A DNA stretch of 64,000 bases, from assembly GCA_963733035.1 (NCBI GenBank), contig CAVTBU010000005.1, positions 832,001 to 896,000 of the forward strand, in the 5' to 3' direction. This document shows, piece after piece, positions 310 to 54,194 of this stretch. Within the stretch, counting starts at the first letter, position 1. Every line of letters begins with the position of its first letter. The position numbers and the translations under genes are program-made. Origin of the DNA: Pirellulales bacterium (lineage in GTDB: Bacteria; Planctomycetota; Planctomycetia; Pirellulales; PALSA-1355). A model generated the notes under the pieces. It saw only the letters and a list, made by a program, of their open reading frames with translations, did not search any database and was not told the origin of the DNA.

Positions 310-1836
<1,527 letters not shown>

Positions 1837-1997
1837 TTTGTAAGCTTGCCGCTCGCCGACCGAAGCCGACTCACGGGTTAATAGCCATCAAAACTTCTGA
1901 GTTTGGTTTGCCAGGTTATCGCACCCTTCGTGAAAAGAATGCGACCCCAGCTAAGCACAGTCTTGTGCTGGCAAAAAAATTCAGAGGTCACTACCGA

Positions 1998-6243: not shown

Positions 6244-7492
6244 ATGGCTACCGCGACTCCCCTGAAACGTGATAACGTCAGTAAGGCACTTTCCGCGGCA
6301 CTCGATGCGGGCGCAGGACTCCTGCGGCTCACGCCAACCTGGGTACCGCGCAGCTTCCTGCATCCTGGCAAGCGGATCAAGTTGGCACCGGGCGATTGGT
6401 ATGCATTTGGGGCGCATCGCGGCGGTATCGACGAACGCTGGTTTGCCAGCACGACTGAGGCGGCCAACGAAAACCGTACGCCGGACGAAGGCCTAAGCTA
6501 CATCACGCACGGCGGCAAGCGGTTCACATTGGCCGATGCGGTGGCTGAGGACGGCGAGCGGCTCATCGGCAAGGCCATGTTCGACAAGTACGAACGGTGG
6601 CCGGTCTACTCGAAATTCTTCGACAACATGGGGCCCATCCCGCATCACATGCACCAGGGCTTCAAGCATGCAGCGCTGACCGGTCAGCAGGGCAAGCCCG
6701 AGAGCTACTACTTTCCGCCGCAATACAACAACGTCGACAACAACTTTGCGTACACGTTCATGGGCCTCGAGCCGGGCACAACCAAGGCCCAGCTTCGCAA
6801 ATGCCTGGAAGACTGGCACAAGGGAGACAACGGCATCCTCGATCTGTCGAAAGCCTATCGCCTGAAGCGGGGCACGGGCTGGCTGATCCCTCCGGGCGTG
6901 CTGCATGCCCCGGGCTCACTGTGCACTTACGAACCCCAGTGGGGCTCCGACGTGTTCGGCATGTTTCAGTCTCTGGTCGAGGGACGCGAAGTCCCCTGGT
7001 CGCTGCTGGTCAAAGACGTTCCCTCGGACAAGCACCAGGATCTCGACTTCATCATCGAACAGCTCGACTGGGAAAAGAACGTCGACACGCATTTCAAGGA
7101 GCATAATTACCTCGAGCCAATCGTTGACGCATCACGTAGTGGCAATGGTTGCACCGACCGCTGGATCGTCTACGGCACAATCGACGGCGAGCAACTCTTT
7201 ACGCGCCAAGGAACTGACGCTCGAGCCGGGCGCCAAGTGCACGCTCAAAGATCCCGGCGCCAGCGGCTGGATCACCGTGCAAGGCCGTGGCCGGATCGGG
7301 AAGCTGGCCCTGCAAACGCCCGCCATGATCCATTTCGGCGAAGAAACCGAGGACGAGGTGTTCATCACGCACGAGGCCGCCAATGCCGGCGTCGAAGTGG
7401 AAAACACCGGCAGCGAACCGCTGGTCAGCCTACGCTACTTTGGGCCCAACACGCACAAAGACCTGCCGGCCGTTGGGGACTATTTGAAGTAG
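6244..7492 (+). CDS. Cupin-fold, mannose-6-phosphate-isomerase-like protein; frameshift at about 7202
   Basis: PHHMH...GKPESYY...LHAPG metal-binding cupin motifs. Continues in another frame as AKELTLEPG...DYLK*. Confidence 0.7.
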
Positions 7493-7498
7493 GAGGGT

Positions 7499-7608
7499 AG
7501 TGATTGGTGATTAGTGGTTAGTGGTTGGTGTGCAGCAAACAGGCACCAATACGCCGCGGCACCATCACAACGAATCTCCTTCGCACTAACCACTAATCAC
7601 CAATCACT
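7499..7608. repeat. Perfect 25-bp inverted repeat of RGTGRTT heptamers enclosing 60 bp
   Basis: 7499-7523 AGTGATTGGTGATTAGTGGTTAGTG is the exact reverse complement of 7584-7608. Confidence 0.95.
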
Positions 7609-7609
7609 C

Positions 7610-8649
<1,040 letters not shown>

Positions 8650-8650
<1 letters not shown>

Positions 8651-9130
8651 GTGATTGGTGGTTGGTGGTTAGTCACACGATGAATTCAGGTGCTGGATAC
8701 GCATCGTGGACAGGAAACCCTCGGAACCGAAGATCCAATCTTTCCGCGACTTGGTCGTTTGGCAGCGTGCGATGGTACTGGCCGAGCGAGTTTACGCGGT
8801 AACACAGGATTTCCCGAAAGCAGAAACTTACGGACTCACCGCCCAGATGCGGCGAGCGGCCGTTTCGATTGCGAGCAACATCGCCGAAGGACAAGGCCGC
8901 AACGGCAGGAGGGAGTTGCTACAATTCCTGGGGCACGCGCGAGGACCTCTCGCAGAGCCGAACACTCAAATCATGTTGTCCGCCCGACTGGGCATGTGCT
9001 CCGTGGAAAGCGAACGGGAACTCACCAGTTTGGCCACCGAAGTGGGCCGACTACTCAACGCCCTGCGGACTTCACTGAAAAAACTCGACGACGACTCCCA
9101 CTAATCACTAACCACCAATCACCAATCACT
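8650..9130. mobile_element. Putative insertion cassette: four-helix-bundle gene flanked by 24-bp heptamer inverted repeats
   Basis: Left arm 8650-8673 AGTGATTGGTGGTTGGTGGTTAGT pairs with right arm 9107-9130 (23/24, the mismatch being a G-U pair). Mobility is inferred. Confidence 0.6.
8706..9104 (+). CDS. Four helix bundle protein (23S rRNA intervening-sequence protein family)
   Basis: [42 protein letters not shown] signature. Confidence 0.93.
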
Positions 9131-10288
9131 ATGTCCAAACCTCTCAATATCGGCATGATCGGCTACGGTTTCATGGGCCGGGCTCACTCCAACGCTTATC
9201 GGCAGGTGAGCCAGTTTTTCCAGCGCGAGTATCGGCCGGTGCTCAAGGCCTGTTGTGCTCGCAAGGAAGACAAGATCAAGGCATTTGCTCAAAACTGGGG
9301 CTACGAGTCCTATGAGACCGATTGGCGGAAGCTGATCGAACGGAAAGACATCGACGTAATCGACGTGGGATCGCCAAATAACACGCACAAGGAGATCGTG
9401 TTGACGGCCGCCAAGGCTGGCAAAATGATCCTCTGCGAGAAGCCGCTGGCCATGAACATCGCCGAGGCCGAGGAGATGTGTGAAGCGGTCGAGAAGGCTG
9501 GCGTGGCGAACATGGTGTGGTTTAACTACCGCCGCGTACCCGCCATCTCGCTGGCCAAACAGGTCGTCGACGAAGGCCGCATCGGCAAGCCATTCCACTA
9601 TCGGGCCACGTATTTGCAGGATTGGACGATTGCCAGCGACGTGCCGCAAGGCGGAGCGGCGCTGTGGCGCCTTGACGCGAGCGTGGCCGGCTCCGGCGTG
9701 ACCGGCGATCTGCTTGCCCACTCGATCGACACGGCCGAATGGCTAAACGGCCCAATCGCCCGCGTGACGGCTGCCACCGAAACGTTCGTTAAAGAACGTC
9801 AGCATGCCGAAACCGGCAAAATGCAGCCGGTTGGCATCGACGACGCCTGTATGTTCCTGGCGGTGTTCAAGAACGGATCGATGGGCACGTTCGAAAGCAC
9901 CCGCTACGCCCGCGGACGCAAGAACTACAACACGTTTGAGCTTAACGGTGAGGCGGGCAGCGTATTCTTCGATCTGGAAGACCCACAGTACCTGCAGTAT
10001 TTCAAGTACTCCGACCCCAAGACCGGCACGAAAATCGAGAGCCACCTGACCGGCTGGCAAAAGATCCACGTCACAAATCCCGAGCATCCCTACATGAGTC
10101 ACTGGTGGGTACCCGGCTGCACGATCGGCTACGAACACACCTTCATCAACGCCTTGGCCGACTTTCTGGAAAGCCTGGAAACCGGCAAGCCCGTTCAGCC
10201 CGACTTCCGTAGCGGGCTGCGGACGCAGAAGGTATGCGACGCGGTGCTGAATAGCGCCAAAAGTGGCGACTGGGTGGAGATCGCTTAA
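9131..10288 (+). CDS. Gfo/Idh/MocA family oxidoreductase
   Basis: IGYGFMG Rossmann motif, [20 protein letters not shown]. Confidence 0.93.
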
Positions 10289-53959: not shown

Positions 53960-54033
53960 CGGCGCATAGCTCAGTTGGTTAGAGCGCGTCCCTGATAAGG
54001 ACGAGGTCCGAAGTTCGAATCTTCGTGCGCCCA
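53960..54033 (+). tRNA. tRNA-Ile(GAT)
   Basis: Cloverleaf; anticodon arm CGTCC-CTGATAA-GGACG; T-arm CGAAG-TTCGAAT-CTTCG; CCA not encoded. Confidence 0.96.
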
Positions 54034-54121
54034 TTTTTGGTCAGGCCGCCCCATGTGGCGGCGGTTCCCGCAGGCACTTGGAATCCAGCCAGGGAGGGGG
54101 CCAGCAGTCGCTAGCAGCCAA

Positions 54122-54194
<73 letters not shown>

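Follow-up and report, generated by a model that had tools for sequence, protein, structure and literature searches.

A gene-less heptamer-armed hairpin in a planctomycete sugar operon, a probable relic of an intervening-sequence-type cassette

How is a gene translated when it has no Shine-Dalgarno (SD) motif left and a perfect 25-bp duplex reaches to within one base of its start codon? This testable question is raised by a 110-bp gene-less element at 7499-7608 of the window (the whole 64,000-nt stretch of Pirellulales DNA analysed here), at an intercistronic junction in a planctomycete sugar operon. The operon genes and elements described below all lie on the + strand. The element consists of a G-rich left arm (7499-7523; AGTGATTGGTGATTAGTGGTTAGTG) with about 3.5 RGTGRTT heptamers, a 60-nt loop (7524-7583) and a C-rich, G-poor right arm (7584-7608) of AAYCACY heptamers. 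The arms are 100% complementary, with 25/25 bp paired, and the right arm ends 1 nt before the start codon, with C at 7609 and ATG at 7610. At the opposite foot, an SD-like hexamer, AGGAGG (7491-7496), overlaps the upstream stop codon and lies 2 nt 5' of the stem. The preliminary description had given this layout, a perfect inverted repeat around 60 bp with AGGAGG over a TAG on one side and ATG one base past the stem on the other, with every coordinate correct.

The upstream gene (6244-7492) is cupin-like by motif, with no Pfam match, and is frameshifted near 7200 in this assembly. Read in the frame of 6244, its residues 1 to ~320 share 89% identity with the ortholog of a same-genus relative (G403), and its last 95 residues, 96% identical to that ortholog, are found in the frame of the ORF 6905-7492. 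The upstream stop therefore needs a correction: the TAG at 7490-7492 exists and terminates the ancestral frame, the one with the conserved C-terminus, while the long ORF 6244-7500 ends at another TAG (7498-7500) within the left arm of the hairpin. The downstream gene (7610-8650) encodes a xylose-isomerase-like TIM-barrel protein (PF01261). Wherever a locus includes the 5' end of the gene, the ortholog alignment starts at one of residues 1-4, which favours ATG 7610 over a true start elsewhere.

One gene downstream, the next junction carries a full sister cassette. Its 24-nt left arm (8650-8673) is followed by a PF05635 four-helix-bundle gene of the 23S rRNA intervening-sequence protein family (8706-9104; E 4e-34; 2gsc_A, E 6e-23), and its 24-nt right arm (9107-9130) ends directly at ATG 9131 of a GFO/IDH/MocA oxidoreductase gene (9131-10288), the last of the conserved triplet. 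The PF05635 gene is the only one in the genome; it starts with GTG and has proline at two conserved helix positions. The cassette arms are 96% complementary and pair in both the MFE and the centroid folds of 8630-9150. They are 89-91% cross-complementary to the arms of the gene-less hairpin and of a near-identical RGTGRTT type; the two elements thus share one heptamer type, as had been claimed from the letters.

The gene-less hairpin is not a chance structure. The two-unit pattern RGTGRTTRGTGRTT has 10 matches in the window against 0.00 expected (100 shuffles), all within the four arms of the two elements. Folded as RNA, 7470-7640 reaches -72.1 kcal/mol, compared with -44.1 +/- 3.8 for shuffles (z -7.4; 0/200 shuffles as good). 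Only 33 perfect inverted repeats of at least 18 bp and at most 1.5 kb apart exist in the whole 6.65-Mb genome, and the 25-bp hairpin is tied sixth longest among them. The genome search for heptamer pairs that the preliminary description proposed places the RGTGRTT type at these two junctions only, with no third site, and a whole-genome search found the three-unit pattern nowhere else. Rfam gave no match at the element. It does not resemble an intrinsic terminator, the stem being followed by CATGAACTCC with no T-run, and a terminator scan returned no + strand site there; such hairpins should be annotated neither as terminators nor as riboswitches. A G-quadruplex reading was rejected as inapplicable, since G-runs in the RGTGRTT arms never reach a length of 3.

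The family to which the sister cassette belongs gives a wider view of such arms. We scored 79 PF05635 loci, which represent at least 10 phyla; inverted arms are present in 61 of them, with a period of 7 in 53 and 8 in 7. The arm 5' of the gene has more G than C in 56/61 cassettes (p 1e-12), and the cassette of this operon does likewise. The gene-less hairpin shares these properties: its terminal inverted arms form a stem well within the range of about 20 bp or longer (25/25 bp, z -7.4), these arms consist of tandem repeats about 7 nt long (RGTGRTT), and, read in the direction in which the flanking genes run, the G-rich arm precedes the C-rich one. It also has a coding partner with matching arms and occupies a junction that holds coding or decaying copies in relatives.

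A comparison of 30 orthologous loci from relatives revealed a decay series at the junction of the gene-less hairpin: some loci keep the cassette intact, others have it as a pseudogene or as C-terminal remnants, and others again show a gene-less hairpin, one arm alone or no element at all. In the tree of the TIM-barrel gene, a well-supported clade of 11 genomes (100/98) bears elements at one or both junctions in 9/11. An intact PF05635 cassette is found in G424 and a cassette with an internal stop in G406, and C-terminal PF05635 remnants of 41 aa (E 2.5e-4) and 16 aa (E 1e-3) are left in G413 and G420, respectively. Gene-less hairpins occur within the clade in the present genome, G416 and G414, and also in G401, which is off the tree as its TIM-barrel gene is cut by a contig end. 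G419 retains the right arm only, and G402, G403 and G423 have no element at this junction. The orthologous junction thus holds the cassette in every stage of decay, and this series supports the view of the hairpin as a gene-less sister of the cassette. The operon is an unusually clean natural series, in which a single junction, compared in about 12 related genomes, passes from the full cassette through the emptied hairpin to no element.

The 60-nt loop itself holds no ORF and no detectable PF05635 remnant (tblastn, no match at E up to 0.05) and resembles the interior of the neighbouring cassette no more than shuffles do. Therefore, descent by deletion is a comparative inference and does not rest on residual homology in this copy; the earlier proposal of a non-autonomous or deleted cassette holds for a gene-less sister, as judged from heptamer type and the relatives' decay series, but not for a deleted copy of the neighbouring cassette itself. 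A loop without a PF05635 remnant is what a fully emptied copy is expected to have. Loop similarity among the hairpins of this genome, G401 and G416 is weak (124-196 of 2000 shuffles score as well), and given this the gene-less hairpins may be independent insertions at one hot spot. The heptamer type varies from genome to genome and agrees between both junctions of one genome in 3/3 informative cases (GTG/GTG here, GGG/GGG in G416 and GTG/GTG in G419). A PF05635 protein tree, built to see whether a GTGGTT-type cassette had taken the place of the present one, gave an unresolved star in which the present cassette has the longest branch. A search of metagenomes with GGNGAYTAYTTGAAGTAR for further orthologous junctions matched 116 stretches; 0/80 retrieved loci encode the upstream gene, the TIM-barrel gene or PF05635, and the matches are therefore attributed to chance.

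As had been noted from the letters, neither ATG 7610 nor ATG 9131 has GGAG, GAGG or AGGA at -19 to -4. Among 38 orthologous starts of the TIM-barrel and oxidoreductase genes, an SD-like tetramer is present in 0/13 with an abutting arm versus 13/25 without an arm (Fisher p 0.001, a significance that is overstated because the genomes are kin). The arrival of the element removed the linear SD motif of the downstream gene, which loses and regains that motif along the series of the junction.

We lean towards regarding the gene-less hairpin as a co-transcribed, tolerated selfish relic of an intervening-sequence (IVS)-type cassette, whose duplex would be a substrate of RNase III, rather than as an evolved ribosome-binding device; this reading seems somewhat better than even. 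On this account, 7499-7608 would be a gene-less remnant or non-autonomous copy of a small palindromic cassette, the full form of which has inverted arrays of 7-nt units on both sides of a PF05635 four-helix-bundle gene and would correspond to the ORF-bearing intervening sequence of 23S rRNA, here in sugar-operon spacers. The element would be transcribed with the operon and fold into a perfect 25-bp RNA duplex, which the RNase III of the genome (99.8 bits) may cut, by analogy with rRNA intervening sequences. The cut would separate the cistrons; a short leader, poor in G and rich in C and A, would remain on the TIM-barrel mRNA, and translation from this leader may proceed without a canonical SD.

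Two known systems lend this account its precedents. ORF-bearing intervening sequences of 23S rRNA (Leptospira, Coxiella burnetii, Brucella and Xanthomonas; S23p ORF) encode the same protein family as the full sister element, have complementary ends that form a long stem, carry an ORF prone to reductive evolution and are patchily present among relatives. According to the sections of PMC4990558 on such elements, they are excised by RNase III, an established step there and a presumed one here. In contrast to them, the present elements lie in operon spacers rather than in an rRNA helix, their arms are arrays of 7-nt units and the gene-less hairpin has no ORF at all. The only rRNA in the window is a 16S at 314-1837, and the hairpin, located between protein-coding genes, falls outside the strict definition of a 23S rRNA IVS as an rRNA-helix insertion. 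The second system is the 5'-UTR hairpin of Haemophilus influenzae hmw1A/hmw2A, in which a heptamer array pairs with a G-rich partner arm directly upstream of the gene; in the portions of PMC12721329 that describe this long hairpin, RNase III cleavage raises expression (of hmw1A). There, however, the pyrimidine-rich repeats form the left arm, whereas the G-rich arm comes first here; the hmw hairpin is phase-variable by repeat number, is given no link to a PF05635 cassette in those portions, and lies in a promoter-proximal 5'-UTR instead of an intercistronic spacer.

The gene-less hairpin can be considered an IVS-related element type known from rRNA, in a setting (operon spacers, heptamer arms) for which our literature search found no description. 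That search returned no publication linking heptamer arms to PF05635 genes outside rRNA; the supplements of PMC4679880 and PMC4692102 might list such neighbours. A search on the names of the PF05635 protein family likewise found no publication on heptamer repeats. If the account is true, it links the conserved four-helix-bundle gene in some rRNA intervening sequences with the origin of abundant intergenic heptamer repeats in many bacteria.

Such repeats have been reported as TAACTGA in Beggiatoaceae (PMC4679880) and as GGGAATC in Xanthomonas and GGGGAYT in Nostoc (PMC4692102). As far as the relevant sections of these papers go, they resemble the present arms in being 7-nt units in intergenic DNA; the commonest end of the TAACTGA arrays is 1 nt before a start codon and ribosome-binding sites are rare there, and the Xanthomonas repeats include 70-75 convergent (inverted) pairs. 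They differ in having been described, in those sections, as simple repeats, sites for regulators or sequences that form G-quadruplexes, and the text of PMC4679880 never mentions '23S'.

A broader proposal extends the relic reading to the whole family, and we put it forward tentatively, as fairly unlikely. Operon mRNAs would have intervening sequences of their own, namely PF05635 cassettes and the hairpins left when these are emptied: self-insulating selfish elements that would land exactly between stop and start and erase the downstream SD, and that would be tolerated through RNase III removal of the stem or through cistron bridging. The gene-less arms would be kept in concert with the resident coding cassette, which would suggest that the pentameric four-helix-bundle protein, related to Avd of diversity-generating retroelements, maintains or mobilises them in trans. 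In unrelated armed cassettes, a same-strand upstream ORF ends -30 to +25 nt from the left arm in 52/61 and a same-strand downstream ORF of at least 200 aa begins at most 30 nt from the right arm in 32/61, counts that rest on crude ORF calls (open frames of at least 100 codons) in G+C-rich DNA and carry no random-position control. The idea of a family that targets intercistronic junctions thus stands as a positional rule, which either targeting or the survival of tolerated insertions may have produced. Separately, retro-mobility via a resident reverse transcriptase was rejected, the genome (92% complete) having no PF00078 match.

Among the alternatives to the relic reading, a purely DNA-level palindrome survives best, although we regard it as fairly unlikely. 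On this view, gene conversion within the palindrome or between elements would maintain the perfect match of a relic that is neutral or recombinogenic; no RNA processing would be involved, and initiation would be SD-independent once the RNA is unwound. The antisense strand of the hairpin folds as well as the sense strand (-73.2 versus -72.1 kcal/mol), and arm mismatches in the 61 cassettes, examined as a test for RNA-level selection, show no sense-strand bias (57 G-U versus 45 A-C, p 0.28). Selection on RNA rather than on a DNA palindrome is therefore not indicated. The perfect mirror despite heterogeneous units and the heptamer type common to junctions 1.1 kb apart resemble copying more than selection, and heptamer arrays that abut starts without a ribosome-binding site are published as direct repeats in the part of PMC4679880 that treats them. 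However, the strong polarity of the arms noted above points to a strand-specific constraint or generating process, and a perfect 25-bp duplex in a transcribed spacer, if formed, would hardly escape RNase III.

A composite ribosome-binding site, which the preliminary description had expected folding to create, is unlikely as the purpose of the hairpin, although the geometry for it is present. The stem would place AGGAGG (7491-7496) beside ATG 7610, and 30S subunits would start on the folded, uncut mRNA, the gap then being G7497, T7498 and C7609 plus one helix width. AGGAGG is complementary to the anti-SD CCUCC, which the genome's own 16S 3' end carries (CCTCC in the DNA), the genome uses SD motifs, with a peak at -13 to -11, and ATG 7610 has no linear SD of its own. 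The T4 precedent that had been invoked is real: at the intercistronic junctions of genes 25 and 38, as presented in the relevant part of PMC3014915, an intervening hairpin joins a distant SD and the AUG, shortening the spacing from 22 to 5 nt and from 27 to 11 nt. The bridged segment is 16-17 nt in T4 versus 110 nt here, or, counted from SD to AUG, 22-27 nt versus 113 nt, and the T4 arrangement is conserved among T-even phages, whereas the SD of the present hairpin is not conserved in orthologous hairpins. Neither of the two orthologous gene-less hairpins compared, G401 (GAAGTAAGGGG) and G416 (GAAGTAGGGATT), has an SD-like tetramer 5' of the stem, nor does the sister cassette of this genome (GGTGGAAATAA). 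In a sample of 43 unrelated cassettes, such a tetramer precedes the left arm in 1/11 with a start at most 7 nt from the arm versus 6/32 others. At the second junction, GGAGG or GGAAGGAG stands before the left arm in 4/6 cassette-bearing relatives, but cassette-free orthologs have the same coding-end motif. The perfect 25-bp duplex is, moreover, an expected substrate of RNase III. We consider that AGGAGG at the foot of the hairpin is probably incidental, though it may help in this one genome. An AGGAGG at the exact bridging position is improbable by chance, and the relic reading leaves it unexplained.

Equally doubtful is a stabiliser of the REP type, in which the hairpin, whole or cleaved, would shield the upstream cistron against exonucleases at its 3' end and thereby set the ratio of the operon products. 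The stem is intercistronic, co-oriented and very stable, lacks a terminator T-run, and resembles REP/BIME elements and the early RNase III sites of T7. However, the cistron to be shielded is the frameshifted one, and the same-genus genomes G402 and G403 have no hairpin at either junction; the stabiliser function is therefore dispensable.

The least probable of these readings, in our estimate very unlikely, is a restart of terminating ribosomes, which the stem would allow, with coupling preserved, by keeping the upstream stop (7490-7492, or in the shifted frame 7498-7500) near ATG 7610. The stop is 0-8 nt from the foot and the start 1 nt past the stem, the medians in unrelated cassettes are -3.5 nt for the upstream stop relative to the left arm (61 cassettes) and 18 nt for the downstream start past the right arm (the 43 where one was found), and reading frames are intact despite the absent SD. 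However, no precedent is known to us for ribosomes reinitiating past the foot of a hairpin 110 nt long, and the downstream distance is often 20-60 nt, with an ordinary SD in 11/32 such cases, so that coupling is not generally needed. The related idea that the 7-nt period makes the arms three-frame stop signals also failed, since left arms close all frames in 11/43 cassettes versus 9.2 expected (p 0.29); right arms do so in 10/43 versus 4.9 expected (p 0.012), which is not a general property.

Returning to the relic reading, the hairpin can also be compared with MITE and REP palindromes, which are likewise short, non-coding, inverted at their ends, co-transcribed in operons and gene-less derivatives of a coding parent. 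The present elements fall outside the MITE class, with two sites only in their genome and a parent cassette that encodes no transposase, and by eye no target-site duplication or direct repeat flanks either of them. A multi-copy hairpin family with a conserved loop, as in MITE and REP palindromes, is found in a distant planctomycete (G014), which has 12 PF05635 genes and 64 two-unit RGTGRTT matches: 8/10 places examined there are gene-less hairpins, and 6 of those 8 have the common loop GAAGAAAAA.

The gene-less hairpin, a perfect inverted repeat upstream of ATG 7610, is well beyond chance. Its 25-nt left arm (AGTGATTGGTGATTAGTGGTTAGTG, 7499-7523) is 100% complementary to the right arm (7584-7608) across a 60-nt loop, and a C at 7609 precedes the ATG. 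The TAG stop of the upstream gene lies at 7490-7492, and AGGAGG at 7491-7496. The preliminary description of this sequence is confirmed. The window contains 10 matches of the two-unit RGTGRTT heptamer pattern against 0.00 expected, all within the four arms of this hairpin and a sister element downstream, and the three-unit pattern occurs genome-wide at these two elements only. The predicted fold has -72.1 kcal/mol (z -7.4), and the opposite strand is equally strong (-73.2 kcal/mol). Among the 33 perfect inverted repeats of at least 18 bp and at most 1.5 kb apart in the 6.65-Mb genome, the hairpin is tied sixth longest. An intrinsic terminator can be dismissed here, the terminator scan being negative at the hairpin. 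The genome also carries other perfect palindrome families (C5:1911607-1912481, C5:2308871-2309633, C7:538042-538109, C6:844063-844896, and C10:165294-166697), among them a 48-bp inverted repeat 669 nt apart, a GGTCAGGCCCTGGCCTGAC-type palindrome found in several places, and a recurring GAAAAGGGGACATCACTGAT end.

The hairpin is located inside a co-directional triplet comprising an upstream gene with no Pfam match (6244-7492), a xylose-isomerase-like TIM-barrel gene (TIM, 7610-8650), and a GFO/IDH/MocA oxidoreductase gene (GFO, 9131-10288). Judging from orthologs, ATG 7610 is the real start of TIM, since the alignments start at residues 1-4 wherever the locus includes the 5' end (orthologs in 35 of 41 genomes searched); Asn-Phe, conserved in these orthologs, lies within a few codons of the start. 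Comparison with orthologs shows a frameshift in the upstream gene near 7190-7210. Residues 1 to ~320 are in the frame of 6244, and the C-terminal 95 residues, which are conserved (96% identity to the relative G403), follow that of ORF 6905-7492. Translation in the shifted frame would continue to a TAG at 7498-7500, within the hairpin arm. This frameshift may be a true mutation or an assembly indel.

Between TIM and GFO, the arms of the sister element (8650-8673 and 9107-9130; 24 nt, 96% complementary) are paired in both the MFE and centroid structures of 8630-9150, and are 89-91% cross-complementary to those of the gene-less hairpin. They enclose the only gene in this genome of PF05635, the 23S rRNA intervening-sequence protein family (8706-9104, 132 aa; PF05635 E 4e-34, 2gsc_A E 6e-23). 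This gene may be decaying: it starts with GTG, its branch is the longest of the family tree, and its product carries Pro81 at a position that is Ser in 80 of 80 homologs and Pro85 at one that is not proline in 79 of 80 (73 of them with Leu, Val, Met, or Ile).

The proposal that the hairpin is a gene-less sister of this cassette is supported by the shared heptamer type and by the series of states in relatives at the upstream-TIM junction (junction 1). Both this and the TIM-GFO junction (junction 2) were inspected in the orthologous operon taken from 30 loci. Junction 1 holds an intact PF05635 cassette in G424, one with an internal stop in G406, and a C-terminal remnant alone in G420 (16 aa, E 1e-3) and G413 (41 aa, E 2.5e-4). 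The window's genome (GTGRTT units), G401 and G416 (GGGRTT units), and G414 (other units) carry gene-less hairpins; G419 retains the right arm only and G418 the left arm only, and no element is seen in G402 and G403 (the window's genus), G423, and several more. Junction 2 carries a PF05635 cassette in the window's genome, G416, G423, G419, G405, and G417, a divergent one (arms of the ATGACGA type) in G431 and G433, and ordinary element-free spacers of 58-102 nt in G402, G403, G404, G408, G411, G418, and G434.

In the TIM-protein tree (25 rows), the family's element-bearing genomes form one 11-genome clade (support 100/98), and G402 and G403 are nested inside it beside the window's genome. The simplest reading of these sequences is that the ancestor of the clade had cassettes at both junctions, and that the junction-1 cassette was emptied in the window's lineage and entirely lost in G402 and G403. 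Alternatively, the gene-less hairpins might be independent insertions at a hot spot. The loops of three of them (window's genome, G401, and G416) are indeed only weakly similar, with 124-196 of 2000 shuffles as good, and the window's loop retains nothing recognisable of the neighbouring cassette or the PF05635 protein. The element-free 68-nt junction-1 spacer of G402 and G403 (L033/L034) offers a hint of a fully decayed element: it ends in ...ACCAATCC ATG and contains CCATCCAATCGC, which by eye resemble worn right-arm units beside a newly placed AGGA.

Several loci hold additional ORFs. At junction 1, G413 (L044) has a 158-aa membrane-like ORF with Cys pairs at its end in place of the PF05635 gene, the intact gene of G424 (L042) is preceded by two more ORFs and by a duplicated 29-aa piece of the PF05635 N-terminus, and G431 (L061) has a 237-aa ORF between G+C-rich hairpins (CCGACGGCTCCGCCGTCGG type), which we take to resemble IS200/REP-associated tyrosine transposases in its motifs. 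At junction 2 of G419 (L037) and G405 (L048), a second ORF of ~170-197 aa lies within the same heptamer arms; its ...FLEVKS... motif presumably resembles those of PD-(D/E)xK nucleases.

The heptamer type varies from genome to genome and is equal at both junctions of the window's genome (GTG/GTG), G416 (GGG/GGG), and G419 (GTG/GTG). Compared with the window's junction-1 arm, its own junction-2 arm scores 20 and the GTGGTT arms in G405 and G419 score 22-23; the orthologous arms in G401 and G416 score just 11-13. In a PF05635 tree, built to see whether the window's own cassette was replaced, the sequences form a star. In three aligned orthologous hairpins, two-sided changes preserve pairing at 13 of 41 predicted pairs. 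In palindromic elements, which may have arisen as new copies, such changes are no evidence of selection at the RNA level, and the arm mismatch spectrum of 61 cassettes from many phyla gave no sign of it.

These cassettes come from a sample of 80 PF05635 loci in many phyla, 79 of them scorable. Clear inverted arms are present in 61 of the 79, with period 7 in 53 and period 8 in 7. By crude ORF calls without a random control, 52 of the 61 have a same-strand ORF that stops between -30 and +25 nt relative to the left arm, which supports the claim that such elements occupy intercistronic junctions. By the same uncontrolled calls, a same-strand ORF of at least 200 aa follows in 43, and the downstream start lies a median of 18 nt past the right arm (at most 30 nt in 32). 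G exceeds C in the 5' arm of 56 of 61 (p 1e-12), the polarity of the gene-less hairpin. The distant planctomycete G014 has 12 PF05635 genes and 64 matches of the two-unit RGTGRTT pattern. Gene-less hairpins occur at 8 of 10 places examined there, 6 of the 8 sharing the loop GAAGAAAAA, and lie 9 to 159 nt from the next gene; loci L157, L158, L163, L166, L168, L177, and L180 represent a multi-copy family with AGTCGTT/AGTGGTT arms. Gene-less families of the RGTGRTT heptamer type therefore exist. Heptamer arrays ending 1 nt ahead of start codons without RBSs (PMC4679880) and inverted GGGAATC pairs (PMC4692102) have been published, the consulted portions of both papers containing no link to PF05635, and our literature searches, including by the family's names, found no paper tying heptamer arrays to PF05635 genes.

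The genome has the anti-Shine-Dalgarno (anti-SD) CCUCC; its 16S rRNA gene (314-1837, reverse strand) has the 3' end GGATCACCTCCTTTCT, and two tRNA genes lie at 53960-54194 on the forward strand. Across 3529 crudely defined starts, GGAG frequency is highest at -13 and -12, reaching roughly nine times the background. Among 38 scorable starts of TIM and GFO orthologs, 13 of the 25 that lack an abutting arm carry an SD-like tetramer between -19 and -4, and none of the 13 with such an arm does, a difference whose p of 0.001 is overstated, the genomes being kin. The element therefore displaces the SD, and TIM and GFO stay intact despite this.

We favour intercistronic processing, followed by SD-independent initiation, by analogy. 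RNase III would be expected to act on a perfect duplex of 25 bp lying in a transcribed spacer, the genome encodes the enzyme, and two published systems are analogous. In rRNA, intervening sequences with a PF05635-type ORF are excised by RNase III and the ORF decays (PMC4990558); in Haemophilus, RNase III cleaves a 5'-UTR hairpin built of a heptamer array, and expression rises (PMC12721329). RNase III would process the duplex between the cistrons, and initiation would then proceed without an SD on the G-poor, C/A-rich leader.

The preliminary description instead proposed that folding creates a composite ribosome-binding site, as in T4. This is possible at the gene-less hairpin, where AGGAGG is at the right place for a bridged SD, but it is not the rule. 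The T4 precedent was correctly invoked, as the relevant part of PMC3014915 describes; bridged initiation there spans 22-27 nt, compared with 113 nt here. An SD-like motif 5' of the stem is absent at junction 1 of G401 and G416 and at junction 2 of the window's genome, and where four relatives have such a motif ahead of the junction-2 stem, it belongs to a conserved coding end also present in cassette-free orthologs. In unrelated cassettes, an SD-like tetramer precedes the left arm in 1 of 11 with a start at most 7 nt from the arm and in 6 of 32 otherwise.
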